A stretch of DNA of 64,000 bases, from NCBI GenBank assembly GCA_049903315.1, contig JBNGBT010000007.1:6561-70560 (forward strand), read 5' to 3'. Origin of the DNA: Candidatus Cloacimonadota bacterium. Its GTDB lineage: Bacteria > Cloacimonadota > Cloacimonadia > JGIOTU-2. Of this stretch, positions 3,834 to 32,066 are shown piece after piece. The position numbers were made by a program, and so were the translations under genes. The notes beneath the pieces are model-generated. The model had not been told where the DNA came from, did not search any database, and was given only the letters and a program-made list of their open reading frames with translations. How positions within the stretch are numbered: position 1 is the first letter of the stretch; every line of letters starts with the position of its first letter.

Positions 3834-5285
3834 GTGGTCAGTTGGGCTGCTCCATATAACGTAATTGGCATCGATCCTCAACTCATCGATCCTGAAAATG
3901 GCGATTATCGAGTAACTCCCGGTTCGCCTTCTGAGGGTTACGGATGCCAGATATTTCCAATTGAAAGAGCACATTCTTATAAAAAACCTAACCCAATCAT
4001 TATTCCATATAAAAATATTGAGTACAACAACTCAATTGAAGTGTCAGGAATCATTGATGAACATACAACCTGGCAGGCAGACACAGTAAAGGTAATTGGA
4101 GACATCGAGATTGTGGAGCAGATAATTCTCACAATTGTAGCCGGCACAAAGGTTGAATTTCAGAACTTCTATTCTATTGACTGTAAGGGGTGTATTCGAG
4201 CGATAGGGGGAGATGATGAGCGAATTCTCTTTACCTCAGTTCATCCTGAACTCTTTGTCCCAGATTCATCATTAACTGGCGCATGGAATGGTATCAGGTT
4301 TCATAACACATCTGCACTAAATGAAAAATCGATCTTTGCGTATTGTGAGTTTGAATATTCAAAAGTGTTTGGAGATTCTATAAAAGGCGGCGTACTCTCA
4401 TTCTATAATTTTTCAAAAGCGCGTGTTGTGAATTGTTTATTTACACAGAATGTCGCAGACTACGGATCAGTAATTGGTCTTGATTATCAATCATCTCCTG
4501 AAATTATTGATTGTATTTTTACTAAGAACTATGCTTTCGTCGGTGGTTCACCAATCTATAGCGCGTACTCGTACCCTCGCTTGATTAATAACACAATGAT
4601 CGATAACTATGTACTGAATGAAGATATAAATTATAGAACCGGGGCAGTCCAATCTTTTATCTCAAAACCACAGATTACCAATAACATAATTAGGGATAAT
4701 GTGACGGATTATCTCGATCCGGGACAGCTTGCTGAGTGCAAGGATTATTATACAACTTTTAACAACATTGAATTCGGGCATGGGGGAGAGAGCAATATTG
4801 ATGAAGATCCCTTCTTTAGCTATTCAGGAGAATATCCCTATTCCTTGCTGCAGTTTTCCCCATGTATAAATGCCGGAACACCGGATACAACAGGTTTGTT
4901 TCTTCCTCTCTCAGATTTTGCTGGAAATGAGAGAATATATAATAGCAGGATCGATATCGGCGCATTCGAGTGGCAGGGCTATGCTGTTGATCCTGAAATT
5001 CCTGATGAAACACCATTTGCATGCTATCCCAATCCTTTCTCGAACTCGACAGCCCTTCAATTATCAACAACCACAGAGCACACAGAGCACATTGAGATTA
5101 AAATATTTAACATTAAGGGGCAGCTTGTCCGTAATCTCCCCCTCACATCTTCTCCTCTTCACTCCATCGAGGCTATGTGGGATGGGAAAGATGAGAAGGG
5201 GAAAGAAGTGTGTGACGGGATATATTTTATTAGATGTAAAGCCCACAATCAGTTTTTAACTCAGAAGATTTTAAAGATTTACTAA
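3834..5285 (+). CDS. Beta-helix-like protein, C-terminal part with T9SS C-terminal sorting domain; likely 3' half of the interrupted gene
   Basis: Same frame as 3138-3821; GTG start with no RBS and no signal peptide; C-terminus (YPNPFSN...IKIFNIKGQLV...GIYFIR) is a T9SS CTD; the PCINAGTPDTTGL...RIDIGAFEWQG module matches the paralog at 43629-45980. Confidence 0.62.
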   Translation: MVSWAAPYNVIGIDPQLIDPENGDYRVTPGSPSEGYGCQIFPIERAHSYKKPNPIIIPYKNIEYNNSIEVSGIIDEHTTWQADTVKVIGDIEIVEQIILTIVAGTKVEFQNFYSIDCKGCIRAIGGDDERILFTSVHPELFVPDSSLTGAWNGIRFHNTSALNEKSIFAYCEFEYSKVFGDSIKGGVLSFYNFSKARVVNCLFTQNVADYGSVIGLDYQSSPEIIDCIFTKNYAFVGGSPIYSAYSYPRLINNTMIDNYVLNEDINYRTGAVQSFISKPQITNNIIRDNVTDYLDPGQLAECKDYYTTFNNIEFGHGGESNIDEDPFFSYSGEYPYSLLQFSPCINAGTPDTTGLFLPLSDFAGNERIYNSRIDIGAFEWQGYAVDPEIPDETPFACYPNPFSNSTALQLSTTTEHTEHIEIKIFNIKGQLVRNLPLTSSPLHSIEAMWDGKDEKGKEVCDGIYFIRCKAHNQFLTQKILKIY

Positions 5286-8375: not shown

Positions 8376-8648
8376 TTAGTAAGTAATCTCAAATGAATCA
8401 TATTCAATTTGTTCCGGGTCTTCTTCAATCGTGATATCATCAATGCGTGCTGCAGGAGGTCCTAATTTAATTTTATCTAAGAAAATTTGCAGATTCGGCG
8501 AATCGCCTTGTGCTTCGATCTCTACATCGCCGTTATACAGATTCTTAGCATACCCATGTATGCCGAAGTGACGTGCATTATATGCAGCAAAATATCGAAA
8601 TGATACGCCTTGTACAACGCCTTTTACAATAATATGTAATTTTCTCAT
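8376..8648 (-). CDS. acyP: Acylphosphatase
   Basis: MRKLHIIVKGVVQGVSFRYFAAYNARHFGIHGYAKNLYNGDVEIEAQG... matches the acylphosphatase fold signature (VxGxVQGVxFR, GxxxN). ATG at 8648 lies 1 nt after the stop of the upstream gene; the listed ORF starts at a TTG further upstream. Confidence 0.85.
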   Translation of the reverse strand: MRKLHIIVKGVVQGVSFRYFAAYNARHFGIHGYAKNLYNGDVEIEAQGDSPNLQIFLDKIKLGPPAARIDDITIEEDPEQIEYDSFEITY

Positions 8649-8649
8649 A

Positions 8650-11556
8650 TTACTCAAAAACAATTATCTGAGGTCGAACGACACCAGCTCGGATCTGGGT
8701 GTGTCCGTTCATATATATTTTTTTATTCTGATATTCTTTAAAGAAATTTTCATAGACGGCATTCATTCTGAAATTGCCAAAACCTTCTGTCAATATTATC
8801 GGAAATGGTATGCTTTCGTTACCTGTGAGAGCAACACCGATCTCCTCTCCAAGAAATTCTACAAGGTCTTTATTATCTATTGATGGTGCGATAACACCTG
8901 CGACATCCTTCTCCGCACATGTTTTCAGGAAGTCATAGGAAATCTTATTGAAGCATATAAGAATTTTATCATGATACGTTGCTTTCTCATATAGAACAGG
9001 TTCATGAAAAATCTGCATATTGCTTGTTCTCTCACTCCCGAATCCTATAATTCCGTTGAGTCGGCTTCCAATATATTGTATGGTTGCGGATAGGTTTTCT
9101 TCCACATCAATTACTTTTCCGCACACATTTGCATAGATACGAAATGGCTCATTCTTGTATTGAATTGTAACTGTGCCCTTATCTGCATCAATGTTTGTAA
9201 TTACTCCGGATGTAGGAGCAGGTATCACATGACTGAAATCCTTTTCAAGACGCGATGCAAGTGGTTCGTATGTTTCTACAAAATCTCCCTCGCGTTTTTT
9301 GAGATATCCTTTGATATGCTTCGGATTTATTTTGAGTTCTTTTGCTATTTTGACCGTAAATGGCTTTGTAGAATAATCCTGGATTTCACGCAATATTATT
9401 GTTCCGGTCTCAAAGTTGATATGTTCGATCTTGCCACGGACAGGTGTTCGATACTCTCCGACTTTACCGGAAAATGCAGAGATCATACCTCGGTCGGAAA
9501 TCTCGATTATTTTTTGATTGAATTTTACCGATTCACCTTCCTTCACAAGCATGCTCTTTTCCATCAGTTCCGGATTGAGATCGAGATAGTCCATTGTGAA
9601 AAGCGAAAGCACGTAAATTTTGGGTGGAGCATATTTATTTTCACCGATGAGAGTATCAGGCGTCACTTCTTCATCTTTTGTAACAAAAATATTTCCTGAA
9701 TAGGGGAGTTCTCTTTTGATCGCATAGGTGCCGGTCTCAATTTTTTTATTTTCTATATATGATGAAAAACACTCCTCGAGAGCTATTGCGGGATTTCCCA
9801 AATCAAAAAGTTTCAACTCGCTATTGTATTGCTTGATGGAAGTATTATCACGAAAACGCGTATCAGCTAATATTGCCTGGTCAGTCTCAAACGTATATTC
9901 ATGATCATTATTTCCCAGAGAAAAGCCCTTTTCCAGATTAATAATAATTTTCTGAAGAGTATTATTTTCGTTTGGAAAATATTTTAATGAATTTGATAGT
10001 ATCGTATGAGATTCGCTTCCAATAATAATTTCCATTACTTTCTGACCGGCTTTCATCTTTTGGAAGATCGGGCGGATGCACATGCCGATTTTTTGATAAC
10101 ATTCTTTATGAAGAAGTTCGGATGCAAGTTCGCTATTCACTTCGCTTAATTTTCCTAAATGAGGTGAAATAAAATGATTGTCGCGCCAGATTTCGGTAAT
10201 TCCTTCTGGTTTGAGTCCATCGCAAATGGTAATTAAAGCATGTGTGCTCGATGGAGCATTTGAGAGCACTCCACCTGCACCTATCATGATGCCGATATCT
10301 TTCATATGAAAGGATCGTTGTTCCTGAAGTTTTTCCACATAGAAGCATTCCAGGAATTTATCAAAATCCGTATGTTTCAATCTGTCGAGGAATCCGATTT
10401 TCTGTGTATTAAAATGCATCTTCATATGATGCCTTATGGACATTTGTATCGCTTCGCGCGCAGTTGCGTGTTCAATAGCTGTTTGGGTATCATCTTGCGG
10501 GATGTAAAGAGGATAGAGCATTTTGTTTGAAATATAATTTCTTATATAGTGCTCATCCAGACTCTCGGGCAGCCATCTTTGAATCTTCTCAAAAGTAGCA
10601 TCTTTCATCACGTTTGAAATACTGTAACTCATCCCATAATTTGCACTTACTGTTCGATAATATTTGCCCATTATGTTTGAGAACACATCCGTTGTTGCAC
10701 CGCCAATATCCACTGAAATGATATTTTTCCCCATTTGTTTGCTTATCAGCCGAAGTGCATTTATAACTCCTGAAGGAGTTGGAATGATAGCGTCAGCAAC
10801 AACCTTTTTCAATGAGCCATAACCCGGTGCCTGCTCCATTACATTATCCATAAAGAGCTGATGTATTTTTTCCTGTGCTGGAGGAAGATTTTCATCCTGC
10901 AGGGTCGGGCGGATATTCGGCACTATGTAGAGTTGAAATTTCTCGGAAAAGAGGGATTGAATGAATGACTGGGCATCTTTGTTGCCGGCATATACAAGTG
11001 GGATTTCGGTTTTATCACCGAATTTTGGTTTTGGGTGTGCTAATGAAAGCAGCTCTCCCATGCGTACGATACTGCTGATATTTCCACCATCTGTTCCGCC
11101 GGAGAATAGAATAATATCAGGTCGCAGTAAGCGTATGAGCTGCATCTTCTCAACAGGAGTCCGGTTATCATTGATCGCAAAAGTATCGAGGATCACTCCG
11201 CCGGAGCCGTACGCAGCACGCTTTGCACTGCTTGCAGAATCAAAAAGTGTGAGACCAAAGACAAGTATCTGCAAGCCACCACCGGCGCTGCTCGTTGTTA
11301 AATAGAGAGTGTCTTTATTAAACCGAAGATTTTCTGAAGTAGAATCTTTATCCAAAAGTTGTATATCAGTGGCTTTTTCTATATTTTGTATGGAGTTGAA
11401 AATGCCGATTTTCACATCTTCTTGTGGACGTTCAACCGTTGTGCCGACATTTTGTAATGCAGTGAGTGTGTAGGACTCACTTCCTTTTTGAAAAAGGACC
11501 GCTTTGGTTGTTGTGCTACCAATATCTGTAATAAGAATATTTTTCTTAGTAATCAT
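8650..11556 (-). CDS. GlmL/MutL-family (hydantoinase-like ASKHA) ATPase fused to a C-terminal partner domain, 968 aa
   Basis: N-terminus ILITDIGSTTTKAV and a second phosphate motif VDIGGATTDVFS (ASKHA). Co-linear homology to the split pair 56503-58401 + 58411-59535 (STSSAGGGLQ, LRPDIILFSGGTDGG, IHQLFMDNVMEQAPGY, RTVSANYGMSYSISNV; C-terminal ILTEGFG, GHTQIRAGVVRPQII). Confidence 0.75.
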   Translation of the reverse strand: MITKKNILITDIGSTTTKAVLFQKGSESYTLTALQNVGTTVERPQEDVKIGIFNSIQNIEKATDIQLLDKDSTSENLRFNKDTLYLTTSSAGGGLQILVFGLTLFDSASSAKRAAYGSGGVILDTFAINDNRTPVEKMQLIRLLRPDIILFSGGTDGGNISSIVRMGELLSLAHPKPKFGDKTEIPLVYAGNKDAQSFIQSLFSEKFQLYIVPNIRPTLQDENLPPAQEKIHQLFMDNVMEQAPGYGSLKKVVADAIIPTPSGVINALRLISKQMGKNIISVDIGGATTDVFSNIMGKYYRTVSANYGMSYSISNVMKDATFEKIQRWLPESLDEHYIRNYISNKMLYPLYIPQDDTQTAIEHATAREAIQMSIRHHMKMHFNTQKIGFLDRLKHTDFDKFLECFYVEKLQEQRSFHMKDIGIMIGAGGVLSNAPSSTHALITICDGLKPEGITEIWRDNHFISPHLGKLSEVNSELASELLHKECYQKIGMCIRPIFQKMKAGQKVMEIIIGSESHTILSNSLKYFPNENNTLQKIIINLEKGFSLGNNDHEYTFETDQAILADTRFRDNTSIKQYNSELKLFDLGNPAIALEECFSSYIENKKIETGTYAIKRELPYSGNIFVTKDEEVTPDTLIGENKYAPPKIYVLSLFTMDYLDLNPELMEKSMLVKEGESVKFNQKIIEISDRGMISAFSGKVGEYRTPVRGKIEHINFETGTIILREIQDYSTKPFTVKIAKELKINPKHIKGYLKKREGDFVETYEPLASRLEKDFSHVIPAPTSGVITNIDADKGTVTIQYKNEPFRIYANVCGKVIDVEENLSATIQYIGSRLNGIIGFGSERTSNMQIFHEPVLYEKATYHDKILICFNKISYDFLKTCAEKDVAGVIAPSIDNKDLVEFLGEEIGVALTGNESIPFPIILTEGFGNFRMNAVYENFFKEYQNKKIYMNGHTQIRAGVVRPQIIVFE

Positions 11557-11595: not shown

Positions 11596-12585
11596 TTAAC
11601 CTTTGAGACCGCTCGTGATAAAGCTGGATATGATCTGCCTTTGTGCAAATAGGAAGAGAATAAGTAGTGGAGCAATGGAGAAAGTTGATGCCGACATGAG
11701 GAGGGCAGTGCTCGAGGACGCCTCCTGTGCGAAGTATGAAAGCCCGACCTGCAGCACACGCAGATTATCACTACTTGTCATTACAAGGGGCCACATGAAG
11801 CTGTTCCAACTCCCGATGAGTGAGAAAATAGCAGTCGTTGCAAGTATTGGTTTGGAGATGGGTAATATGATCCTCCAGAGGATGCCAAATTGAGAGCATC
11901 CATCAATAACTGCTGCATCAAAAAGGTCTTGAGGAATTGTCTTAAACTGTTGTCGCAGCAAGAAGATGCTGAATATATTTGCAATCCATGGCACAATAAG
12001 CGCTTGGTAGGTGTTTATCCAACCGAGTTTTGTAAGCAGGAAATATGAAGGAATGAGATAGATAGGCTGGGGAACCATCATCATACTGATGAACAGGTAA
12101 AAGATGAAATCCCGTCCTTTGAACTTCATACGGGCAAATGCGTATGCTGCAAGAGATGAGGTGATAAGCACACCGATAAGCACAGAAAATGATACAAAAA
12201 GTGTGTTGAGAATATACCTGCCAAAAGGCACTTTTGTAAATGCCTCTTTATAATTATCCCAATGCAATTTCAGTTTTTTGGATGATTTTATACTTTCAGC
12301 AGGAACTTTCACGTAAGATTCTTTGAAGGTTTTACCATCTTTATCATATATATTTATAACAACTTGATTTTCTTCTTCATCAACAATTTCACAAAGCTCT
12401 TTTTTCCCATCATGAGTATAATAATTTACAAAATCAATAGGAATGAATCCCACGCTGCCTTTATTTATTGCAGTTTGTGATTTCAGAGAAGTGGAAACCA
12501 TCCAAATAAACGGCACAACCATGATCAACCCACAGAGGATGAGCATGAAATAAGAGAACCCTTTGCCAAAATATTTTTTAAGCAT
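11596..12585 (-). CDS. ABC transporter permease (MalG/CUT1-like) with a large extracytoplasmic insert
   Basis: Multi-TM protein with a binding-protein-dependent permease EAA-type loop (DAAVIDGCSQFGILWRIILP); overlaps the upstream permease gene by 1 nt. Confidence 0.82.
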   Translation of the reverse strand: MLKKYFGKGFSYFMLILCGLIMVVPFIWMVSTSLKSQTAINKGSVGFIPIDFVNYYTHDGKKELCEIVDEEENQVVINIYDKDGKTFKESYVKVPAESIKSSKKLKLHWDNYKEAFTKVPFGRYILNTLFVSFSVLIGVLITSSLAAYAFARMKFKGRDFIFYLFISMMMVPQPIYLIPSYFLLTKLGWINTYQALIVPWIANIFSIFLLRQQFKTIPQDLFDAAVIDGCSQFGILWRIILPISKPILATTAIFSLIGSWNSFMWPLVMTSSDNLRVLQVGLSYFAQEASSSTALLMSASTFSIAPLLILFLFAQRQIISSFITSGLKG

Positions 12586-13526
12586 CAGTACTGAACCTTT
12601 TTCTCAAGCTGCTTTTGAAGCATGGTCAAACCAAGAATTATAACGAATAGAATAAGAGCTATTGCACTCGCATAGCTGAGATTCTGTGACTCGCCAAAGC
12701 CTATTTCAAAAATATAATACACGATCACTTTTGTTGTTCCCAGCGGTCCGCCGATTGGTGGTCCCGTCATTAAATATACCTGCGAGAAGACTTGAAAAGT
12801 TGTGATGGTCGTCATGAGTAGTACATAGAAAGTTGTAGGGGAAATAAGGGGGACAGTGATTTTAAAAAACTGTTTCCATTTGCTTGCACCATCGATATCA
12901 GCAGCTTCATAATATACTTCCGGAATATTCTGGAGTCCAGCAAGATAAATGATTGTATTATAGCCCAGACTTCTCCAGATACTTACAATTATGATCGCAA
13001 AAAGTGCGAGTGAAGGCCCACCTAATGCTTTTGGTATATTGATGCCCATTGCACCAAAAAGTAGGGTAAAAATTCCTCTTGGTTCGGAAAGCCAATCGAG
13101 TCCATGAATGCTAAAGAAACCAAGTACATGGTTCATCAATCCGCCGTGAGGTGAGAAGATCAGTTTCCAAAGAATTGAGATGGCAACGAGGGATGTGACT
13201 GTGGGGATGAAATATGTTGTTCTGAAGAGACCGGATAGTTTTTTTGTTCTGTTGAGAAGATTCGCAAAGAAAAGTGACAAAACAAGTGTTACGGGCACGA
13301 CAAAAATTACTAGGTAAAATGTATTGATCAGAGATTGCCAGAAACCGGGATCCTGGAAAAGTTTAATGTAGTTTTGGAAGCCGATAAATTTCTCTGGTCC
13401 GTGGATAGTCCATTTGAAAAAGCTAATAATGAAGGAGAGTAATATTGGTATGAAACGGAAAGCGAATACTACAAGAAATGCTGGTAAGATATACCCGAAA
13501 GGGAAATAGCTTTTTTTTGTTCTCAT
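12585..13526 (-). CDS. ABC transporter permease (MalF/CUT1-like)
   Basis: Six predicted TM segments; permease signature YEAADIDGASKWKQFFKITVPL. Confidence 0.85.
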   Translation of the reverse strand: MRTKKSYFPFGYILPAFLVVFAFRFIPILLSFIISFFKWTIHGPEKFIGFQNYIKLFQDPGFWQSLINTFYLVIFVVPVTLVLSLFFANLLNRTKKLSGLFRTTYFIPTVTSLVAISILWKLIFSPHGGLMNHVLGFFSIHGLDWLSEPRGIFTLLFGAMGINIPKALGGPSLALFAIIIVSIWRSLGYNTIIYLAGLQNIPEVYYEAADIDGASKWKQFFKITVPLISPTTFYVLLMTTITTFQVFSQVYLMTGPPIGGPLGTTKVIVYYIFEIGFGESQNLSYASAIALILFVIILGLTMLQKQLEKKVQY

Positions 13527-17012: not shown

Positions 17013-20000
17013 TTGAATAAAAAAAGAAAATCTATTATCGTTCTACTGGTGGGTATATTTGTTACATGCCCCTTATTCGGGGACTCGCTAATATCAGTAC
17101 TACGATCCTCTTTAGATAATCTTACTATAGAATTTACACTACCAGAATATGAAATTCAATCGAAGAACGATTTTACCTACATAGAATGTCCTGAACTGAA
17201 ACGTGAGGAGATCGAAGGAAAGATTGATCTTCCGTACTACTCTTTTCTGGTGGGTGTTCCTACAAACGGAAATGCGCAGGCATCAATTGTCTCTTCAGTG
17301 GATAGTTATTTTGAATTAACTTCACCAGTTACTCCTTTCCCAAAATTTATCAAAGACGAACAAAAGGGCACATACTCTCTTGTGTATGATATCAAACAAG
17401 ATATTTATTCACTTGAAACTTCAAAGGAAATTCTGGATATATCAGAACCTTACTTATGGAGACAACAAACAGTTATCAAAGTAGTTCTGCACCCTTTTAT
17501 CGTTGAAAATGAAAAACTCAAAATCATAAAAAATCTCAAACTCTCATTCTCGCTTAGCGGCAATAAAGCATCAAGACCATTTTATGATAAGAATTTTGAA
17601 CAAGTTTTTCAAAATACAATAATCAATTTTGATATAGCACAACATTGGAGTTCGGATAGAGAACTGAAAAAACAGGATAATCCATTCTCACACGCAGATA
17701 GGTGGTTCAAAATACCTATCACTGAAAATGGGATTTGCAAACTAACCAAGCAAAAATTGTCTGATGCAGGAATTGATGTGGATAATCTCGATCCTGATGA
17801 GATCAAGGTATTTAATGGCGGAGGATATTCACAGAGCCGATCAGTCTATTCAACATTATATCCCTTTGAAGAAGTGCCAGTTTTCATAACTGAGAGCGGT
17901 TCTGATTATACAATATATTTTTATGTGAGAAATACAAATGGCATCGAATTGAACGACAATTACGAACAATATTTTAATCCTTATACAGGCGAGAATACCT
18001 ACTGGCTCACTTATAATACTGATCTTGCTTCACGCCCCAATTATCATAACCAATATTCAAGCGATCTCACAAAACGTGAAACATTCACTACATATAGTTA
18101 TTCACAACATTTTGAAGAAGATCATGTGCGATCTGATCCGCTTATGATTGAATGGTACTGGCAAAGCTTTACAGGGAGCGGATCGAGCACAAAGTATTTT
18201 GATTTTACAGTTTCAGAACTCAATACAAATGAACCTCAAGAATTAACGATTAATTTTAACTACCGTCCTTATACTTATTATATAAAAACCTATCTAAACG
18301 ACGTGTTACTTGATGATTATGTATGGACATCCTCACACGTGACTTATACTGGAAATTTTCTTCAAAATGGAACAAATACTCTCAAGGTTGTTGAAACCAC
18401 TTCCGGTTCCCAGACCTTATATTTTGATTATTATGAAATAGCATATACAAAGAATCTCAAGATGGAGAATAATTATCTTGCATTTTCACTTCCTCAGGAA
18501 AATGTGGAGTATACTGTTCATGTTTCTAATGTTGCAAACAATGAACTTCAGATATTCAAATTACGTGATTTTTATCAGGCTTCAAAGATCACAAATTATG
18601 ATATTTCAGGAACTTCTCTTTCATTCAATGCTCTTTCGGACACTGCCGGAACGCAATTCTGCATTGTCAGTAATGGTGGATATATTATTCCTGATGTAGT
18701 TGAAGAAAAATTAGAGCCGCTTGTATATTTGAATGGCACAGAAATTCGTTCATACCTGAGGGATGAAATAACTCTTGCTAATACTGAAGCAATAATTATT
18801 ACCCCTGAACAATTTTGGGATAATGCCAAAGAGCTTGCCGATGTACATTATGCAAATGATAATTTGAATGTGCTTGTCGTGAAAATAAATGATATATATG
18901 ATGAATTTGCATGGGGCTTGGTAGATGTAGTTGCTGTAAGATATTTCCTAAATTATGGATATGACTATTATGCTTCGATTCCAGACAGACAGTTATCTTA
19001 TGTAGCCCTAATGGGCGATGGAACAAATGATTTCCGAGGGTATGAGCAGGGCTCTGTAGAAAAAAATAAAATTCTTCCTTTTGTAGAAGGAACAACTGCA
19101 TCTGATGATTATTTTGTTTATTTTATTACAAAACTTAATCCTTCATTAATGATAGGTCGTTTTCCAGGTTATACTGACTCTCAAATGGAGATCATGGTCG
19201 ATAAGACTGTTGATTTTATTTCAAATCCCGAATTTGGATATTGGCGTAATCGCGTGATTCTATGTGCAGATGATTTTCTTAAACAGGGACAAAACACCGA
19301 AACAGGTCACACAACTCATGCAGAAAGTTGTTCGCGAAGAATTGAAGCCAATGTCGAACTTCTGAAAAACTATGGAATCCGGTACCCTCTTGATGAATTC
19401 CAGAACCGTCCGGAAGCTAATGAAGATTTAATAAAGATGATCAATAATGGAGCCGGAATATTTTATTACATTGGACATGGCGGTTATGATGTCATCGGGG
19501 ACGAAGAATATTTTCGAGCAAGCAGGGATATTACAAAACTCACAAACGGGAATAGACTCAACTTCTTTCTTGCAGCATCATGCGATATAGGTTTGTTTGA
19601 CTCCAATACAATTGAGTCGATGGCTGAGCGTATGATGTACAGCAAGGACAAGGGCTCGATTGCTGTATTTGCTTCTGCCCGAAAAGGTGGATACGGACCG
19701 TGTTCTGATGTTGTATCGCTTGTAGTAAATCACACAGGTGAAAGCATTACAATAGGTCAAGCAGTAATAGCTTCAAAAGGGGGAGGAGCATCGAAATCAT
19801 ATGAGAAATACTTGCTTTTCGGGGATCCGATGTTGAGAACAGCTCTCCCTGCAATAAGGGGTAATATTACAATTCCAGAAGAATTTGTCGACTCACTTCA
19901 AGCACGTCAAACAGCTTCTTTGCAAGGAGTTATCGACACAACAGGATTTTTATTTGATGAAGTATTCAATGTAGCGTATGACACTGACTATATCGTCAAA

Positions 20001-20918
20001 TATCCTTATGATTATCGCGATCCTAACACGGGAATCTGGGAAATCAGATATCTTGGTGTTGTTGAAAAGGGAAAAGCGATTTTTAAAGGACCCGTTTCAT
20101 TGCAGAATAATAATTTTGATTTTGGTTTCATTGTTCCTGATGATGTATATGGCGGAAATGAAGGGCAGGTGTTAAGTTATTCTATTGGCACATCTATTGA
20201 AAATGATGTGGATGTAGCGTTGAGGTATAATAAACGGAATAATCCCGATGATCATGAACTTATTATAAATGGGTATGCAGAATCCGAAAATGACGGACCA
20301 CCTCAGATCACTATGTGGTTGGATAATGATGCTTTTAAAAACGGAGATTACGTGTCATCATCACCTCTTGTATATATAGAAATTCTTGATAGCAACGGTG
20401 TAAATATCACTAATTATCCCGGTCATCGAATTTTATTAACAGTAGATAATGAGGATGAGTATAATATCACAGAATATTTTGTATATGATTTGGATTCTTT
20501 TATTCAAGGATCGATCGAATATCAGTTAGAGTCAATACCAACGGGCACCCACACTTTACGATTGGAGGTCTTTGATAACCTGAACGAAGTAGCATTTTAT
20601 GATGTTGAGTTTAAGATTAAAAGCCCTGATAATATTGATGTGCGGACTGTGTTGAATTATCCAAATCCTATGGATGACCATACATATTTCACTTTCTATC
20701 TTGATGGTGATGCTTCTGTTGACATTGAGATATTTACTGTGGCTGGCAGAAAGATTAAAACAATAGATGATTTAATACTTCGCACGGGTTATAATCAGGT
20801 GTTGTGGAATGGCAAAGATGAAGATGGAGATGTTCCCTCAAATGGCGTATATTTTTATAAATTGAAAGTCAATGGGAAGACGATTGATGAAATCTTTAAG
20901 ATCATTATTTTCCATTAA
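17013..20918 (+). CDS. Peptidase C25 (gingipain-like) family protein with T9SS C-terminal sorting domain, 1301 aa
   Basis: TTG start 8 nt after rpsT; signal peptide; candidate catalytic dyad context FYYIGHGGYD ... FFLAASCDIGLFD as in C25 peptidases; C-terminal T9SS CTD (YPNPMDD...IEIFTVAGRKI...GVYFYKL). Confidence 0.7.
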   Translation: MNKKRKSIIVLLVGIFVTCPLFGDSLISVLRSSLDNLTIEFTLPEYEIQSKNDFTYIECPELKREEIEGKIDLPYYSFLVGVPTNGNAQASIVSSVDSYFELTSPVTPFPKFIKDEQKGTYSLVYDIKQDIYSLETSKEILDISEPYLWRQQTVIKVVLHPFIVENEKLKIIKNLKLSFSLSGNKASRPFYDKNFEQVFQNTIINFDIAQHWSSDRELKKQDNPFSHADRWFKIPITENGICKLTKQKLSDAGIDVDNLDPDEIKVFNGGGYSQSRSVYSTLYPFEEVPVFITESGSDYTIYFYVRNTNGIELNDNYEQYFNPYTGENTYWLTYNTDLASRPNYHNQYSSDLTKRETFTTYSYSQHFEEDHVRSDPLMIEWYWQSFTGSGSSTKYFDFTVSELNTNEPQELTINFNYRPYTYYIKTYLNDVLLDDYVWTSSHVTYTGNFLQNGTNTLKVVETTSGSQTLYFDYYEIAYTKNLKMENNYLAFSLPQENVEYTVHVSNVANNELQIFKLRDFYQASKITNYDISGTSLSFNALSDTAGTQFCIVSNGGYIIPDVVEEKLEPLVYLNGTEIRSYLRDEITLANTEAIIITPEQFWDNAKELADVHYANDNLNVLVVKINDIYDEFAWGLVDVVAVRYFLNYGYDYYASIPDRQLSYVALMGDGTNDFRGYEQGSVEKNKILPFVEGTTASDDYFVYFITKLNPSLMIGRFPGYTDSQMEIMVDKTVDFISNPEFGYWRNRVILCADDFLKQGQNTETGHTTHAESCSRRIEANVELLKNYGIRYPLDEFQNRPEANEDLIKMINNGAGIFYYIGHGGYDVIGDEEYFRASRDITKLTNGNRLNFFLAASCDIGLFDSNTIESMAERMMYSKDKGSIAVFASARKGGYGPCSDVVSLVVNHTGESITIGQAVIASKGGGASKSYEKYLLFGDPMLRTALPAIRGNITIPEEFVDSLQARQTASLQGVIDTTGFLFDEVFNVAYDTDYIVKYPYDYRDPNTGIWEIRYLGVVEKGKAIFKGPVSLQNNNFDFGFIVPDDVYGGNEGQVLSYSIGTSIENDVDVALRYNKRNNPDDHELIINGYAESENDGPPQITMWLDNDAFKNGDYVSSSPLVYIEILDSNGVNITNYPGHRILLTVDNEDEYNITEYFVYDLDSFIQGSIEYQLESIPTGTHTLRLEVFDNLNEVAFYDVEFKIKSPDNIDVRTVLNYPNPMDDHTYFTFYLDGDASVDIEIFTVAGRKIKTIDDLILRTGYNQVLWNGKDEDGDVPSNGVYFYKLKVNGKTIDEIFKIIIFH

Positions 20919-21195: not shown

Positions 21196-24045
21196 ATGAA
21201 AAAACTTATTGGATTAACGATCGTGGCCTTGTTCATTACCTCACTTGCATTTGCAGTTAATTATACAAGTGGAGAAATGAGCAAAGGAACACCTTCAAAC
21301 TTTGAATTACACCCGAACTATACTCCTGGTGAACAGATTCACAGAGTTGCACCTAAAAATGTAGACCCTTATCGTGACGCTCCAGATCCAGAAGGTGTTC
21401 AACTTTTATATTGGGAGAACTTTGAAACCGAAGATGACATTTGGTATTACGCTAATCTTTCTTATTACTGGGTTATTCCTGTTGAAGCTTCTGAGTTCGG
21501 AACTCGTTTTACTGCCTATAGATCCGGCGACCTTGTAGGTGCATGGTTCTATTGGTATACTGGAAATGGTGGAGACGCTGATGTTCATGTCTATGCAGAT
21601 GATGGCACTGGATATCCTGGTGCTGGTTTAGGCAGTGTTTCAGTCACACCAGTTCTTAACGACTGGAACTATGTAGATCTTTCTGGTCTTGGAATTTCTG
21701 TTGATCCCTCTGCGGACTTCTTTATCACCTATAGTGTAGAAGCTGGTGATACTCTTAGTATTCTTTCAGATGATGGCGCGACTACAAATAATCGTGCACT
21801 TGAAGTACTTCCTACACTCAAAGATTGGACCTATATGGTTAACGATTGGGGTGCAGACTACGAATGGTGCCTTGAAGCAATCATCGAGCACGACACAGAC
21901 CCCTGGGTTCCTGAGATTGCAGGCAGATGGCAGTGGGTCGATACAGATTATAACAGCCCCACTCATTCATGGTGGATTGCTGATGATACAGCATATCAAG
22001 GATACAACTGGCTCAGCTCTGAACCCTTTACTATAGGTGACGACTATGCTTTGGTCCAGGTAGATTACGCATATAGAAGCAGCTTACCTGAAGCAGTGTA
22101 TTCAGATGAATATTGGTCATTCTACATTGGAAATACAGCCGATGGTATTGATTGGCATGCGTCAACCTATAATGCTTATAACGCTGGCACATCTTGGTAT
22201 GGCGGCGATGAAGTAACTCATGAATACGGTACAAGCGCAATTTATTATTTGTACACACCAGATATCGATCTTACCACTGCTTGTGAAGCTACATTAACCT
22301 GTATGCTTGATTATGATACAGAAGCACCAGGCGGAGAAGACCCACCATTCAACGGTTGGGATGTTGCAAATGTTCAGATATCAACAGATGGCTGGGCAAC
22401 TAAAGGATTCCTTGAAGATCCTTCAAATCCTTATAATGTAACTATTGCTTTTGCCGGTTGGGCAAACACTTCACTTCCTGCAGACACATTGAGCTATCCC
22501 GGTTGGGGTGGTCCAAGTCCTGCCGGCTGGTTCGCAGCTACTTTCGATCTTGCTGCATACCTTGGTGAAACAGTTCAGATCCGTTTTGCTCTTGCATCAG
22601 ATCCGTATACTGTAGCTCAGGGATTCTGGGTTGATAATCTTGATATTACCGCAGATGGCTCAGTCATATTCTCAGATTATGATGAGACCAACTTAATTCC
22701 TGCCCCTCCAGTTGTTGTTCTTGAAGAGCTCGAATACCTGGATACTTATACTGATGAAGATTGGTATGTTACTGATAAATATGACATTTCAATGTACGCT
22801 GGCGAGGAAGTAATTCTTAAGATGAAAGCTACCCTTGCAGACGATGCTGGTTCCGGAGAAGGTTTCTGGTTCGATGACATCCAGATAACCGGAGCCAATC
22901 TTCCTGTTCATGATATGGCAGCAATGTTCAATGTAATGCCGTATGGTGCGACCGAAGGATGGGATTATAGTCCCGGTATCGTTTATGGAAATTACGGAAC
23001 AACAATCGAAGGTCCACAGCTTAGAATGGATAACCTTGATTATGGTACAACTCCATTCGATTATTACAATAACAATCCTCCAGCTATTGGCTATGGTGAA
23101 TTTGATCTCGCATGGCTCACTCAACTGACAGCACTTCCTGGCGCTGGCTGGTATGATTTCTGTGGTTGGACAGAGGTTGGTGGCGATGAAGATCCCACAA
23201 ATGACTCTACCTATTTCTGGGGTGTCGAAGTATATCCCGCAGGATGGGCAGAATTCGGTAATAACTCCAGAGTATGGAGTGAAGACTTTTATACTTCTGG
23301 ATACTGTGGAAACTGGTTTGATATCTTCGATGGTGCTCGTATGACATCATTTGATATCTATTCAGTTTGGACTCAGGTTATTAACTATGGTTCGACTGGT
23401 GATGTCGATACATGGACAGTTGAGATATTCGAAGCTGTCGATGACCTTACTCCCGGAGCAAGCCTATACTACGGTTCATTTGATTGTACCGGTATTGACG
23501 GTGATGACTTTGGCTGGGTTGAATTCGTTCTTCCTACTCCATTACACATTACCGGTAATGTCATAGTTATGATCGGTGGTGTTTGGGTTGGCGGGTCTCC
23601 TGGTGTTGATGCCAGCTACTTCCCTGCATTTGATAGCATGGTCAGAAACTACCTGGGTGTCGGTGCATACTATGGACACAGTGTGTACGGTACAGAAGGC
23701 GATCCTGCAACTTGGGGACATTCCTCAGGTGACCGTTTCGTCAACATCTATGGTCGCGTAGATTATGCTACAGGTCCTGATGTTCCTGGTGATGTGAGTT
23801 ATCTCAACCAGAACGTGCCAAATCCTGTCACAAATAATGCTACTATTAGTTACCATATAAAGGGCTCTCCAATGAACAATGCAGAGATCAAGATATATAA
23901 CGTACTTGGTCAGCTTGTTGATACAGTCCAGGGCGAGAATGGTATCGCTACCTGGAATCCTGGTGATGCACCTAATGGTGTCTATTTCTACAAAGTATCA
24001 TCCGACGACTTCACTTCAGTGAAGAAAATGATCCTTATGAGATAA
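21196..24045 (+). CDS. T9SS-secreted surface protein, Trp/Tyr/Asp/Gly-rich, 949 aa
   Basis: Strong RBS GGAGGAG; signal peptide; repeated blocks ending FWVDNLDIT / FWFDDIQIT; C-terminal T9SS CTD (VPNPVTNNATISY...IKIYNVLGQLV...GVYFYKV); GC content and codon usage visibly differ from neighbours. Confidence 0.8.
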   Translation: MKKLIGLTIVALFITSLAFAVNYTSGEMSKGTPSNFELHPNYTPGEQIHRVAPKNVDPYRDAPDPEGVQLLYWENFETEDDIWYYANLSYYWVIPVEASEFGTRFTAYRSGDLVGAWFYWYTGNGGDADVHVYADDGTGYPGAGLGSVSVTPVLNDWNYVDLSGLGISVDPSADFFITYSVEAGDTLSILSDDGATTNNRALEVLPTLKDWTYMVNDWGADYEWCLEAIIEHDTDPWVPEIAGRWQWVDTDYNSPTHSWWIADDTAYQGYNWLSSEPFTIGDDYALVQVDYAYRSSLPEAVYSDEYWSFYIGNTADGIDWHASTYNAYNAGTSWYGGDEVTHEYGTSAIYYLYTPDIDLTTACEATLTCMLDYDTEAPGGEDPPFNGWDVANVQISTDGWATKGFLEDPSNPYNVTIAFAGWANTSLPADTLSYPGWGGPSPAGWFAATFDLAAYLGETVQIRFALASDPYTVAQGFWVDNLDITADGSVIFSDYDETNLIPAPPVVVLEELEYLDTYTDEDWYVTDKYDISMYAGEEVILKMKATLADDAGSGEGFWFDDIQITGANLPVHDMAAMFNVMPYGATEGWDYSPGIVYGNYGTTIEGPQLRMDNLDYGTTPFDYYNNNPPAIGYGEFDLAWLTQLTALPGAGWYDFCGWTEVGGDEDPTNDSTYFWGVEVYPAGWAEFGNNSRVWSEDFYTSGYCGNWFDIFDGARMTSFDIYSVWTQVINYGSTGDVDTWTVEIFEAVDDLTPGASLYYGSFDCTGIDGDDFGWVEFVLPTPLHITGNVIVMIGGVWVGGSPGVDASYFPAFDSMVRNYLGVGAYYGHSVYGTEGDPATWGHSSGDRFVNIYGRVDYATGPDVPGDVSYLNQNVPNPVTNNATISYHIKGSPMNNAEIKIYNVLGQLVDTVQGENGIATWNPGDAPNGVYFYKVSSDDFTSVKKMILMR

Positions 24046-26051: not shown

Positions 26052-27695
26052 ATGCATAAAAAGAAATATGAAGATCTTGTAAAGAAGTTAAGAGAGAAAT
26101 ATCCTGAGCGCCAGAAAGAATTTATTACAGGCTCCTCAGAAGAAGTACAACGTCTATATACACCAGAAGATACAAAAGAAATAGATTATGACAGGGATAT
26201 TGGATATCCCGGACTCTATCCTTTCACGCGCGGTGTCCAGCCAACAATGTACAGAGGAAGGTTGTGGACAATGCGCCAGTATGCTGGATTCGGTACAGCA
26301 GAAGAATCGAACCAACGATATAAATTTCTCCTCTCACAAGGTCAGACCGGTTTATCCATTGCTTTTGACCTTTGTACACAAATTGGGTATGATTCTGATG
26401 ATCCGATATGTGTTGGGGAAGTGGGGAAGGTAGGAGTGGCAATTGACTCTCTCGCAGATATGGAAATTCTTTTTGACGGTATCCCACTTGATAAAGTATC
26501 AACTTCTATGACCATCAACGCTCCTGCTGCGATCGTTCTTGCAATGTATATAGCTGTTGCAGAAAAACAAGGCGTCGCACTGGATCAATTAACAGGTACG
26601 ATCCAGAATGATATTCTCAAAGAATACATCGCTCGTGGCACCTATATATTTCCTATAAAACCTTCAATGAGGCTCATCACGAATATTTTTGAGTATTGCT
26701 CGAAACATGTGCCAAATTGGAACACGATCTCCGTATCTGGCTATCATATCAGAGAAGCTGGTTCAACTGCAGCAGAGGAAATTGCATTTACTCTTGCTGA
26801 TGGTATTGCATATGTACAGGCAGCTATAGATGCAGGATTGGAAGTTGATGACTTCGCTCCCCGAATCTCGTTCTTTTTCAATGCTCAGAACGATCTCTTT
26901 GAAGAGGTTGCTAAATTCCGTGCTGCAAGGCGGTTATGGGCGCAAATCATGAAAGACAGATTTCATTCGAATAATCCTAAATCTCAAATGTTACGCTTTC
27001 ATACACAAACAGGCGGCTCTACGCTTACTGCTCAACAATCCGACAATAATATCGTAAGGATCACGATTCAAGCTCTTGCAGCGGTTCTTGGAGGCACACA
27101 ATCCCTTCATACAAACTCACGGGACGAAGCACTCGCGCTTCCTACTGAGGAATCTGTTCGGATCGCACTTCGGACACAGCAAATACTTGGATTTGAAAGT
27201 GGTGTTACAAATACTATCGATCCACTCGCGGGTTCATATTTTGTAGAAAAAATGACTGAAGAAATCGAAAAAAAAGCAAAAAAACACATTCGGCGAATTG
27301 ATGAACTTGGTGGAATGGTTGAAGCTATTGAAAAGGGATATGTACAAAAACAAATCCAGGATAGCGCTTACAAGTATCAGAAGCAGATCGAGAAAAATGA
27401 ACGAATAATTGTCGGAGTTAATAAATTTACTACTGAAAAGGAATCACCAAAAAACTTACTTCGAGTTGATGAAAAAGTTGAACAACTACAAGTTAAAAAA
27501 TTGCACAAGATAAAAGCTCAAAGAGATGAGAAAAAAGTGCATGAAAATCTAGAAAAAATACGTAAAATTTCTCGAACTGAAGAGAACCTCATTCCGTCAA
27601 TTCTCGAAGCTGTGAAGACCTATGCCACTCTTGGTGAAATTTGTAATGTGTTACGTGAGGAATTTGGTGAATATAGCGAACAAATTGTTTTTTAA
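26052..27695 (+). CDS. Methylmalonyl-CoA mutase family, large (substrate-binding) subunit without B12 domain
   Basis: [56 protein letters not shown]; MCM-like Tyr and Arg positions appear retained (alignment by eye). Confidence 0.85.
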
Positions 27696-27710
27696 GAGAA
27701 TCGTAATAAT

Positions 27711-28106
27711 ATGAAAAAAATAAAAATATTAATTGCAAAACCTGGCCTTGATGGACATGACAGGGGAGCGAAATTTGTTTCTCAAGTCCTCAGGAATGCC
27801 GGTTATGAAGTCATATATACAGGCATTCGTCAAACACCAGAACAAATAGTCACTTCTGCGATACAAGAGGACGTAGATTTTCTTGGAATGAGTATCCTGT
27901 CCGGTGCACATAATGTGCTCTTCAAAAAAGTTATGGATATCCTCCGAAATGAAAATACGGATGATATAATTGTGTTTGCCGGGGGCGTTATACCTGAGGA
28001 TGATATACCGTATTTGAAATCGCTGGGTATCAAAGAAATTTTCACGCCCGGAACCTCTTCGAAAAAAATAATTGAATTTATTGAAAACAATGCATCAAAA
28101 GAGTAA
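27711..28106 (+). CDS. Cobalamin (B12)-binding small subunit of acyl-CoA mutase
   Basis: 131 aa; DxHxxG motif (LDGHDRGAKFV) and Rossmann-like B12-binding fold signature. Confidence 0.85.
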   Translation: MKKIKILIAKPGLDGHDRGAKFVSQVLRNAGYEVIYTGIRQTPEQIVTSAIQEDVDFLGMSILSGAHNVLFKKVMDILRNENTDDIIVFAGGVIPEDDIPYLKSLGIKEIFTPGTSSKKIIEFIENNASKE

Positions 28107-28124: not shown

Positions 28125-29504
28125 ATGGTTAAATATCCTGTTGAACCGTTTAAAATAAAGATGGTCGAACCCATTAAAATATTGGATAGAGAACAAAGGA
28201 TCAAAAAGATCAAGCAGGCAAAATATAATCTTTTCAATCTAAAAGCTGAGGATATTTTTATCGATCTTCTTACCGACAGCGGAACTTCTGCTATGAGCGA
28301 CTCACAATGGGCTGGTATCATGCGGGGTGATGAATCCTATGCAGGAAGCAGGAGTTATTTGCATTTCGAGCGATCAGTCAAAAATATCTTCGGTTATGAA
28401 AATATCATTCCAACCCATCAGGGAAGAGCTGCAGAAGCAATTTTATTTTCGACTATTCTCAAGCCCGGTGATTATGTGCCAAGCAATATTCATTTTGATA
28501 CCACTGAGGGAAACATACGCAATAATGGTGGAATTCCAGTGGCGTGTGTGATTGATGAAGGATTGGATCCAGCAAGTATTTATCCATTCAAAGGAAATAT
28601 CGATCTTAATAAATTACAAAAGCTGGTAGATGAAGTTGGCGTTGAGAATATCCCAATTGCTATGATCACAATTACCAATAACAGTGGGGGTGGTCAGCCG
28701 GTTTCGTTGGAAAATATCAAACAGGTTTATCATTTTTGGAAAAAACTGAACGTCCCGTTCTTTATTGATGCGTGCCGTTATGCAGAGAATGCGTATTTCA
28801 TAAAGATGAGAGAAAAGGAATACGAAAATTCATCAATTGAAGAAATTGCAAAAGAAATATTTGCGCACGCTGATGGTGCGACTATGTCAGCAAAAAAGGA
28901 TGCATTGGTGAATATTGGCGGCTTTATCACATTGAAAGACAGTGAGCTTGCTCAAAGACTCATAAGCAAACTCATTATCACAGAAGGTTTTAAAACCTAT
29001 GGAGGATTATCCGGACGCGATCTCGAGGCTGTTGCAATCGGTTTACAGGAAGGATTGAACGAAGATTACTTGAGATATAGGATCGAGCAAACTGCATATC
29101 TCGGTGAAAGTCTATTGGAGAAGGGCATCCCAATTGTACGCCCTCCCGGGGGTCATGCGATTTATATCGACGCACTCTCTGTACTTCCAGATATCCCTCA
29201 GAAATATTTCCCTGCACAAGCCCTTGCTATAGCATTGTACATTGAAGGTGGAATACGCGGAGTTGAGATTGGCAGTATCATGTTTGCATATAATGATGAA
29301 AAAACTGGAGAAACCATCTATCCCAAACTAGAACTTGTGCGCCTTGCAATACCGCGCCGTGTATATACGAGAGCGCATCTCGATTGTGTTGTTAAAACTG
29401 TGAAGAAAGTCATGGATAACAGACATCACCTGAAGGGATTACGTATAACTTATCAACCAAAATTACTCAGACATTTTACTGTTGAGTTAGAAGAAATTTC
29501 ATAG
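28125..29504 (+). CDS. tnaA: Tryptophanase / tyrosine phenol-lyase family (PLP beta-eliminating lyase)
   Basis: 459 aa; PLP-lysine context GATMSAKKDALVNIGG matches the TnaA/TPL family; RBS AGGAG. Confidence 0.82.
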   Translation: MVKYPVEPFKIKMVEPIKILDREQRIKKIKQAKYNLFNLKAEDIFIDLLTDSGTSAMSDSQWAGIMRGDESYAGSRSYLHFERSVKNIFGYENIIPTHQGRAAEAILFSTILKPGDYVPSNIHFDTTEGNIRNNGGIPVACVIDEGLDPASIYPFKGNIDLNKLQKLVDEVGVENIPIAMITITNNSGGGQPVSLENIKQVYHFWKKLNVPFFIDACRYAENAYFIKMREKEYENSSIEEIAKEIFAHADGATMSAKKDALVNIGGFITLKDSELAQRLISKLIITEGFKTYGGLSGRDLEAVAIGLQEGLNEDYLRYRIEQTAYLGESLLEKGIPIVRPPGGHAIYIDALSVLPDIPQKYFPAQALAIALYIEGGIRGVEIGSIMFAYNDEKTGETIYPKLELVRLAIPRRVYTRAHLDCVVKTVKKVMDNRHHLKGLRITYQPKLLRHFTVELEEIS

Positions 29505-29512: not shown

Positions 29513-30742
29513 ATGGGTAAAACAATTGTAGAAAAAATAATTCAGCTCCATTCTGAAGAAGAAGCCGTAGCTGGTAAGATAGTATGGATGAAACTCGATG
29601 TTCGTACTGCCCGTGATTTTGGCGGACCAAATGTGGTTAAAAATTTAGAAAAACACTATCCTGACGCAGAATTGCCGGACAAAGAAAACGTATTTTTTAC
29701 TTTCGATACTGTCGCACCTGCCAAAACAATTCCTTATGCAAATAATCAGCAAATTTGCCGTGAGTTTGCGAACAAGAACGGGCTCAAAGTTTATGATGTG
29801 GATGCAGGTATCGGCACACATATTCTTATGGAAAAAGGATTTGCACGACCCGGCAGAACTCTGGTCGGAACCGACAGCCATTTTAACATTCTTGGAGCAG
29901 TTAATGCTTTTGGACAAGGCATGGGTGATCAGGATATTGCATTCGGATTCAGTACAGGGAGAACATGGTTTGAAGTTCCGGAAACCATAAAAGTAAATCT
30001 TAAAGGCACATTCTCGTATCCTGCCACAGGGAAGGACCTTGTTCTCTACATTCTTAAAAGGATCGGCAGTAAAGGGGCACTTGGCAAATGTATTGAATAT
30101 TATGGTGAGTGCTTGCAGGATTTGACTTTTTCCGATTATATAACTTTGTGCAGCATGATGACTGAAATGGGTGGTATCGTTGCATTTCCCGAGCAAAATG
30201 CTCAAGTCAGTCAATGGCTGAAAGAACGAACAGGCGAAAATCTTCAATTCATTATTGCTGATAATGATGCTCAATATACTGAAGAAATTGAAATCGATGT
30301 TTCGGGATTACAACCTCAAATCGCATGCCCGCCAAAACCGGATAATGTTAAAGATGTTTCTGAACTTAAAGGATTAAAAGTCGGCTCAATTTTTGTGGGC
30401 TCTTGTACGAATGGTCGTATTGAGGATATGCGTTATCTTGCCGATATTCTGAAAGATAATCATGTTGCAGAAGGTATAATGCTTCGAGTCGTTCCTGCCA
30501 CACGAGAGGTTTATGGGCAAATGCTCAAAGAAGGTCTGATAGATATTCTTTTCAACGCCGGTGCTATTGTATCGAATCCGGGATGTGGCGGCTGTGCATC
30601 AGGACAGATTGGTATGACTGGTAAAGGTGAAGTTCAAATCTCTACATCAAATAGAAATTTCAAAGGCAAACAAGGTGATGGTGAAACCTATCTGGCAAGT
30701 CCTGTCACTGCAGCATTTGCCGCAATAAAAGGGGAGTTATAA
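29513..30742 (+). CDS. Aconitase-family hydro-lyase large subunit, archaeal-type LeuC/homoaconitase-like
   Basis: 409 aa; VGTDSHF, Fe-S cysteines in GSCTNGR and NPGCGGC, STSNRNFKGKQG; LeuC-like throughout. Confidence 0.85.
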   Translation: MGKTIVEKIIQLHSEEEAVAGKIVWMKLDVRTARDFGGPNVVKNLEKHYPDAELPDKENVFFTFDTVAPAKTIPYANNQQICREFANKNGLKVYDVDAGIGTHILMEKGFARPGRTLVGTDSHFNILGAVNAFGQGMGDQDIAFGFSTGRTWFEVPETIKVNLKGTFSYPATGKDLVLYILKRIGSKGALGKCIEYYGECLQDLTFSDYITLCSMMTEMGGIVAFPEQNAQVSQWLKERTGENLQFIIADNDAQYTEEIEIDVSGLQPQIACPPKPDNVKDVSELKGLKVGSIFVGSCTNGRIEDMRYLADILKDNHVAEGIMLRVVPATREVYGQMLKEGLIDILFNAGAIVSNPGCGGCASGQIGMTGKGEVQISTSNRNFKGKQGDGETYLASPVTAAFAAIKGEL

Positions 30743-31977: not shown

Positions 31978-32066
31978 AATGAACATGTTTGGAAAAATAG
32001 AGCATCTTAGGGATTTAATAAGCAAAAAATTTGACAGTTTATCAAGAGGAGCACGTTTTATCTATA

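Follow-up and report, generated by a model that had tools for sequence, protein, structure and literature searches.

A fused MutL-family ATPase of Candidatus Cloacimonadota, its split counterpart, and a conserved four-gene membrane cassette as their genomic partner

Genes of the system in the window

We analyzed a 64,000-nucleotide stretch of contig JBNGBT010000007.1 (positions 6,561 to 70,560, forward strand; assembly GCA_049903315.1) from a Candidatus Cloacimonadota bacterium, referred to below as the window. Its central feature is a gene for a protein of 968 amino acids (aa) that joins an ATPase of the Pfam MutL family to a partner module. The two modules also occur in the window as separate proteins of 632 and 374 aa, whose genes follow that of a small helical protein (orf120 family), and a cassette of four membrane protein genes lies at a third site (Table 1). 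A preliminary description, based on the sequence alone, had correctly delimited the 968-, 632- and 374-aa open reading frames and recognized that two paralogous copies coexist, but it had missed the orf120 gene, the cassette at 32618-37633 and a split B12 mutase. Because all parts, the fused ATPase, the cassette, and orf120 with the split pair, are found within the 64-kb window, the genome holds the whole set, dispersed over three loci.

Table 1. Features of the window, with positions counted from its first nucleotide.
Feature	Position	Strand	Remarks
Fused ATPase and partner module, 968 aa (fused clade)	8650-11556 (stop codon included)	-	Open reading frame
ATPase domain, aa 1-~497	10066-11556	-	ASKHA fold, hydantoinase/GlmL branch
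Beta-rich middle domain, aa ~498-600	9757-10065	-	Strands from the model; boundaries estimated
Partner module, aa ~601-968	8653-9756	-	Barrel-sandwich-hybrid lobes, then swivelling beta/beta/alpha domain
Two ATP-binding cassette (ABC) permease genes	11596-12585, 12585-13526	-	BPD_transp_1, UgpA/UgpE-like; 39 nt upstream of the fused gene
Split methylmalonyl-CoA-type B12 mutase, catalytic subunit	26052-27695	+	PF01642, E 1e-236
Separate B12-binding subunit, 131 aa	27711-28106	+	TIGR00640, E 5e-47
Cassette gene 1, DUF6754 protein, 934 aa	32618-35422	+	Pfam DUF6754 (PF20539), E 2.8e-120, residues 675-931
Cassette gene 2, c218, 207 aa	35437-36060	+	Polytopic, ~6 predicted transmembrane (TM) helices (hydropathy)
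Cassette gene 3, c280, 317 aa	36070-37023	+	Predicted TM helix, ~255-aa periplasmic domain, TM helix
Cassette gene 4, c244, 199 aa	37034-37633	+	Polytopic, ~5-6 predicted TM helices (hydropathy)
Small helical protein, 120 aa, orf120 family	56128-56490	+	First gene of the split operon
Split-form ATPase, 632 aa, MutL family, type B	56503-58401	+	Pfam MutL, E 1.5e-125
Split-form partner, 374 aa	58411-59535	+	Barrel-sandwich hybrid, swivelling beta/beta/alpha domain, KOW-like barrel

Fused and split forms across phyla

As had been proposed, the 968-aa protein is co-linear with the split pair. It is 39% identical to the 632-aa protein over 515 columns (BLASTP, E 2e-120), and its C-terminal third is homologous to the 374-aa protein, with 31% identity between residues 727-966 and 47-294, respectively (E 4e-36); in a MAFFT alignment this second co-linearity reaches back to residue ~600 of the fused protein. 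Judged from the alignments, such values are far beyond chance.

Scanning one genome per species, we found relatives in 594 or more species-level genomes. These cover about 14 phyla, among which are Nitrospirota, Planctomycetota, Acidobacteriota, and numerous candidate phyla. The neighborhood counts given below refer to the best 80 loci of these at least 594 relatives and were obtained by calling open reading frames, BLAST, and clustering. They comprise 27 fused genes, 45 split pairs, and 8 ATPase genes without a detected partner (truncated contigs or solitary genes), so that the suggested Rosetta-stone relationship is both real and general. Fused forms (906-1058 aa) come for the most part from Cloacimonadota and Fermentibacteria; near-identical database proteins are from Candidatus Cloacimonadota. 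The split loci span at least 10 phyla, among them Nitrospirota, Latescibacterota, Planctomycetota, Acidobacteriota, WOR-3, Eisenbacteria, Dormiibacterota, Marinimicrobia, Armatimonadota, Bacillota, and Cloacimonadota. Counting its short, long, and fused forms, the partner family amounts to 3,735 clusters at 50% identity. A reverse survey, seeded from DUF6754 in metagenome contigs, covered a further set of 80 loci, 17 of them with full 10-kb flanks.

In a neighbor-joining tree of the ATPase part, the fused forms make up their own clade, apart from two split clades, and the 632-aa protein groups with the split-B ATPases from Nitrospirota, Latescibacterota, and Planctomycetota. Some MutL-family ATPase genes of ~600 aa have no partner detected alongside (L048, L055, L059 (Armatimonadota), L054, L066, and L072); two of them (L066 and L072) retain the upstream gene for the small helical protein. 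These may represent a further variant, or their partner may be very divergent. Three ATPase/partner pairs share the genome of Candidatus Fermentithermobacillus carboniphilus (CP062796.1; L025, L065): a tandem of two lies at 1.61 Mb, and another pair, of 605 + 480 aa, at 1.20 Mb.

The split form has a characteristic gene order: small helical protein, ATPase, partner. Of the 45 split loci, 41 have an orf120 homologue, which usually directly precedes the ATPase gene; the 27 fused loci have none. The protein combines a helical core of moderate hydrophobicity with a lysine-rich tail; its alignment retains the core ...RRM..PAI.FLES.KPL.F.GSQ..., and it matches no family in Pfam or NCBIfam. Longer fused variants (P0138, P0144, P0208, and P0231, 1024-1058 aa; loci L002-L009) carry an N-terminal CxxC...CxxC zinc ribbon (PF12674) and a helical segment, which might substitute for the absent small helical protein. 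On three long-read metagenome chromosomes, a gene for a TetR-family regulator and the start of the fused ATPase gene overlap (L162, 7348-8004; L163, 7412-8008; L164, 7429-8004), which hints at ligand-controlled expression. Around the fused gene in the window, a search for promoters and terminators returned nothing above shuffled expectation.

The ATPase part belongs to the MutL family but is not GlmL proper

The Pfam MutL profile (PF13941; gathering score 27 bits) matches the fused protein at residues 7-486 over its full length (1-450 of 450; E 3.4e-100, 336.4 bits) and the 632-aa protein at residues 8-497 (419.9 bits), and both are thus members of this family. The preliminary description had called them GlmL/MutL-type. 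The family assignment holds, whereas that to GlmL in the strict sense does not: the two proteins score 214.5 and 214.4 bits with the NCBIfam GlmL equivalog NF040745 (cut-off 475) and 152.6 and 164.4 bits with TIGR01319 (glmL_fam; cut-off 204). Because these cut-offs are not reached, we regard them as MutL-family members and not as GlmL proper. In agreement with the earlier observation that glmE and glmS are missing from both loci, neither ATPase gene has the GlmL-type location between or next to glmS and glmE. The 968-aa protein is not a glutamate mutase accessory protein.

A broader role as reactivase of a B12 or radical enzyme, as presumed for GlmL, might be suggested by the Pfam membership and by the B12 mutase within the window (26052-28106), which such a protein might serve. 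However, this mutase, the only B12 mutase of the window, is encoded on the opposite strand at a distance of 14.5 kb from the fused gene, no mutase gene is found in any of 160 related loci, and the conserved neighbors are membrane proteins; the GlmL cut-offs, as described, are missed. An alpha/beta insert in the ATPase domain (aa ~82-210) looks flavodoxin-like to us, but this similarity is generic, with equal scores for CheY, flavodoxins, and GTPases. We therefore consider a reactivase function very unlikely.

The ATPase part has the two-lobe fold of the ASKHA superfamily, and its motifs phosphate-1 (DxGxT), phosphate-2 (DxGGxT), and adenosine (GG) are invariant in 50 fused homologues. The nucleotide site hence appears competent, which is consistent with the uncharacterized, ATP-dependent function suggested before. 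An AlphaFold2 model of the fused protein is compact and confident (predicted local distance difference test, pLDDT, 84.6; predicted template modelling score, pTM, 0.82) and shows the partner packed onto the ATPase as a single compact body. The middle domain between them is modeled with six strands at residues 505-564 (pLDDT 85-93) and corresponds to the last ~130 residues of the 632-aa protein.

The partner module has carrier-like folds without the residues of carrier chemistry

The model of the 374-aa partner (pLDDT 87.9) comprises three domains, the last of which is a KOW/SH3-like barrel as in NusG and Spt5. Fold comparison of this model likens the swivelling domain to those of rifampin phosphotransferase (5hv1), Enzyme I, RraA, and DdrA, and the partner is thus predicted to contain the swivelling beta/beta/alpha fold of the mobile domain of phosphoenolpyruvate (PEP)-utilizing enzymes. 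In the fused protein, the KOW-like tail is absent and the module has an extra barrel-sandwich-hybrid insert of ~85 aa, which it has in common with the long split partners (451-483 aa) of Bacillota. Sequence-profile searches of the PDB with the partner, DUF6754, and c280 returned nothing other than Fn3.

Partners from different phyla are 43-60% identical, a conservation that, going by sequence, is close to housekeeping level, and they share the invariant motifs QGIFGIGGE, GVAITGxE, TEGFG, and TQIRAGVxRPE. Among 24 partners from many phyla, no histidine, cysteine, or lysine is invariant, and neither these nor the partner regions of 50 fused proteins have even a nearly invariant histidine. We rejected phosphohistidine chemistry and biotin or lipoyl carrier chemistry because of this lack of invariant residues: neither the catalytic histidine of the PEP-utilizing mobile domain nor the modified lysine at the hairpin tip is conserved.

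These observations bear on the possibility that the system is a metabolic enzyme, namely an ASKHA kinase, hydrolase, or carboxylase of the hydantoinase/acetone carboxylase type, with the partner as carrier or lid and the cassette moving its substrate ("trap by phosphorylation"). The best solved folds for the ATPase part are indeed N-methylhydantoinase, acetophenone carboxylase (structure paper PMC5214803), acetone carboxylase, and caprolactamase (Foldseek, E 5e-10 to 3e-06), with Hsp70, FtsA, and PilM ranking behind them. Profile searches of the N-terminal half, called for in the preliminary description, gave not only the MutL match but also a weak, 54-residue match to Hydantoinase_A (PF01968; 33.4 bits, cut-off 22.9), and barrel-sandwich-hybrid and swivelling domains are classic carrier and phosphotransfer modules. 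On the other hand, the partner lacks the invariant residues for phosphate, biotin, or lipoate, its conservation across phyla is high, the 160 loci show no recurrent gene for a HyuB-like catalytic partner or another enzyme, and cassettes multiply without added enzyme genes (see below). In our view, an enzyme of this type is unlikely.

A four-gene membrane cassette is the conserved genomic partner of the ATPase module

The first cassette protein is predicted from hydropathy and charge to consist of a signal peptide, an extracellular region of ~650 aa with Fn3-like parts, a TM helix, a cytoplasmic DUF6754 core of ~190 aa, and a second TM helix. The N-terminal part of its homologues matches Fn3 (titin, E 8e-28), and an operon-linked DUF6754 homologue matches PF20539 with an E-value of 4e-112. 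A tblastn search with operon-linked proteins detected the cassette of the window at 34526-37630 (E down to 3e-95). The remaining three proteins have typical sizes elsewhere of ~218 (c218), ~280 (c280), and ~244 aa (c244). Homologues of c218 occur in 31 of the 80 genome loci, always after DUF6754, those of c280 in 27, and those of c244 in 28; c280 has basic residues at both termini. As a whole, the cassette is predicted to provide ~16 TM helices together with cytoplasmic and extracellular or periplasmic domains. The proteins c218 and c244 are not homologous by hhalign (probability 1%), nor are DUF6754 and c280. Pfam and NCBIfam contain no family for c218, c280, c244, or c180, and c280 has no PDB sequence match either.

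The consensus order is [orf120][ATPase][partner][DUF6754][c218][c280][c244], the cassette usually lying directly downstream. DUF6754 is found within ~8 kb in 32 of the 45 split loci, and at least three of the four cassette genes in 27 of them. In each of two Bacillota loci (L031 and L064), a single array contains a cassette, an ATPase and its long partner, the small protein, and a second ATPase, this one with a short partner. Among the fused forms, one gene (L163) has DUF6754 (957 aa) immediately behind it and then genes for 208, 360, and 198 aa; another (L026) has cassette genes 6 kb upstream. In the reverse survey, the four-gene order is invariant, and the ATPase pair is the sole recurrent neighbor from outside the cassette. 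Co-location of the ATPase and partner with the four-gene cassette is thus established, and we conclude that the cassette is a real conserved genomic partner of the ATPase module.

Two or three cassettes often stand in tandem (for example, three copies in L102, L114, L121, L123, L125, L135, L136, L138, and L157), and this multiplication occurs without multiplication of the ATPase. Several Cloacimonadota-like contigs (L088, L092-L096, and L099-L101) have, behind a single cassette, a further large DUF6754 gene; neither tandem cassettes nor such an additional gene are present in the window.

The Fn3 domain predicted outside the cell on the DUF6754 protein and the small, partly hydrophobic helical protein preceding the ATPase gene, which recalls PilM-PilN and the tethers of FtsA, would also suit a scaffold or assembly ATPase like FtsA, PilM, or GspL that organizes an envelope-spanning complex, for example in surface display or envelope biogenesis. 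The similarity to FtsA and PilM is, however, generic for ASKHA folds and lower than that to hydantoinase-type enzymes, and tandem triplication of cassettes suits substrate-specific modules more than one structural machine. We consider this reading quite unlikely.

Proposed function

We propose that the 968-aa protein unites in one chain a cytoplasmic ATPase module that otherwise consists of two proteins, and that this module energizes the membrane cassette, a combined statement to which we assign a probability of roughly 0.5. That the ATPase, partner, orf120, and cassette genes form one system is, by itself, very probable; that this system powers transport is conceivable but falls somewhat short of an even chance. 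More tentative still is the most general form of the proposal: a phylum-spanning transport or translocation machine that is driven by an ASKHA motor and its swivelling partner, and not by a P-loop ATPase (ABC, AAA+), with one ATPase set serving interchangeable Fn3-bearing four-protein cassettes.

Swivelling domains transmit nucleotide- or phosphoryl-dependent movement in DdrA and PEP-utilizing enzymes. By analogy, ATP binding and hydrolysis would move the swivelling domain of the partner, and this movement would be relayed to the cytoplasmic face of the cassette, where the cytoplasmic domain of DUF6754 is the probable dock. There it could drive transport or translocation across the cytoplasmic membrane. 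The small helical protein may act as an adaptor for the split form. Because the cassettes multiply, we infer that one ATPase set might serve several paralogous cassettes, comparable to the shared energizing modules of the energy-coupling factor (ECF) or TonB type.

Several observations weigh against the proposed energizing role. In the window, the three loci lie 21-24 kb apart and form no single operon. A cassette is near only 2 of the ~33 fused-form loci examined (L163 and L026), and the contexts of fused forms on multi-megabase contigs (six proteins looked up) are for the most part unrelated. Viewed from DUF6754, the ATPase pair is near in 11 of the 80 loci and in 4 of the 17 with full flanks. 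The closest solved relatives of the ATPase are small-molecule enzymes and not motors, the invariant partner motifs have no assigned role, and the cassette membrane proteins match no known transporter family in Pfam or NCBIfam. For docking, the adaptor role, and transport, we rely on inference throughout.

If the proposal is true, it would reveal a new energy-coupling principle; to our knowledge, no membrane machine is energized by an ASKHA ATPase of the GlmL/hydantoinase branch. It would also offer the first functional handle on the GlmL family, the role of which has been unclear since the 1990s. Most "glutamate mutase L" labels in the databases would then be misnomers, and a systematic annotation error that implies glutamate fermentation where none exists would be corrected.

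Local neighbors of the three loci

The gene downstream of the fused gene encodes an acylphosphatase (PF00708, E 1.6e-26), separated by a single nucleotide in the junction ...GAG TAA t ATG... (stop codon 8652-8650, acylphosphatase ATG at 8648), and the two ABC permease genes lie upstream, all on one strand. The preliminary description reported these genes and spacers correctly and saw the fused protein as coupled to the acylphosphatase. Such a coupled function could, for example, run via an acyl-phosphate intermediate and involve the sugar-type permeases. A near-invariant aspartate in the GGIDDxDL motif of split partners, near the estimated phosphohistidine position (placed by eye against the PEP-utilizing motif and not by structural alignment), would fit such chemistry, but it is not conserved in fused forms. 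Outside the window, moreover, L013 is the only additional locus in which the acylphosphatase adjoins the ATPase gene, and the permeases do so in L001 and L013 alone, all close relatives (61-64% identity); the link is absent in Cloacimonadota relatives at 54% identity or less. In the stretch examined, the permeases lack an accompanying gene for an ABC ATPase or a binding protein. The neighborhood survey thus largely refutes this coupling, which we find scarcely credible: both neighbors are local accidents of gene order.

The split pair is embedded among purine genes (purL, purB, purS, purQ, and purA at 49262-62358), which are interleaved with lgt, a 234-aa open reading frame, a ComF-like phosphoribosyltransferase gene, the trio of orf120, ATPase, and partner genes, and pmbA. 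The order purS-purQ-comF-orf120 recurs in the Cloacimonadota loci L033, L034, and L038. As this linkage is seen only within Cloacimonadota, we regard it as lineage-specific and rejected it as a general feature of the split locus.

Upstream of the cassette, genes for the large and small subunits of an aconitase-family enzyme (LeuC/LeuD-like) are split by an M23 peptidase gene (29513-30742, 30751-31977, and 32031-32582), the LeuD-like gene ending 36 nt before the DUF6754 gene. Directly after the cassette follow genes for ApbE (flavin transferase), a FolE2-type GTP cyclohydrolase, and a NIF3-family protein (37672-40277). ApbE flavinylates Rnf/Nqr subunits; because of this, and because the partner has an RnfC/NqrA-like domain, we examined the ApbE link. 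None of the three genes neighbors the cassette in any of 80 loci, and they were discarded as cassette partners.

Elsewhere in the window, the B12 mutase genes are followed by one for a beta-eliminating lyase (28125-29504), with no MeaB-like gene seen adjoining. Large secreted proteins with sorting domains of the type IX secretion system (Por_Secre_tail, FlgD_ig) are encoded at 3834-5285, 17013-20918, 21196-24045, and, on the reverse strand, 43629-45980 and 46038-48812; one of them is a C25 (gingipain-like) peptidase of 1301 aa, another an InhA-like protein with a MAM domain. Beside dprA, there is a fragment of an IS200-like transposase (462-1079, 1154-2260). PADLOC assigned none of the eight components of the system to an anti-phage defense family, which excludes a defense system as far as PADLOC goes.

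Comparison with known systems

We found no published name or description of the system in the full-text literature, a search that left out most subscription journals, so that an earlier description is possible. Curated families provide no name for the partner, for the small protein, or for c218, c280, and c244, and current annotations read "hypothetical", "KOW domain-containing", "DUF6754", or "glutamate mutase L", the last of which is misleading. The system matches no described kind, although the fused gene itself belongs to a known Pfam family.

The closest relative by family is GlmL/MutL of the Clostridium glutamate mutase operons, which shares the ~450-residue ATPase domain and its ASKHA motifs. 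Unlike GlmL, the ATPase described here has an extra beta-rich C-terminal domain of ~100-130 residues and an obligatory partner, and it has membrane protein genes in place of glmS and glmE as neighbors. Hydantoinase/oxoprolinase-type enzymes belong to the same ASKHA branch and provide the closest solved folds, but identities are 8-11%, whole-chain TM-scores are low, and the partner is unrelated to their subunits. HyuA-type enzymes combine a full Hydantoinase_A domain with a HyuB partner; neither is seen here, and no HyuB-like or alpha-subunit-like gene is among the recurrent neighbors.

The barrel-sandwich hybrid of the partner matches the N-terminal domain of NqrA and RnfC. In contrast to these proteins, the partner has no flavin, NADH (Complex1_51K), SLBB, or iron-sulfur domain, and the cassette membrane proteins match no Rnf/Nqr subunit in Pfam, which sets the system apart from Rnf and Nqr. 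The same hybrid fold is shared with biotinyl and lipoyl carriers, whose invariant lysine is absent in the partner. Similarly, the swivelling fold is shared with PEP-utilizing enzymes (rifampin phosphotransferase, 5hv1; Enzyme I of the phosphotransferase system, 2wqd), whose invariant histidine is absent here. In DdrA (2d0o), finally, the large subunit of diol/glycerol dehydratase reactivase, the swivelling domain is inserted into the ATPase chain, and a DdrB small subunit and an adjacent B12 dehydratase belong to the picture, whereas no DdrB or dehydratase gene occurs here; in the present system, it forms a separate module or protein, and the targets are presumably membrane proteins.

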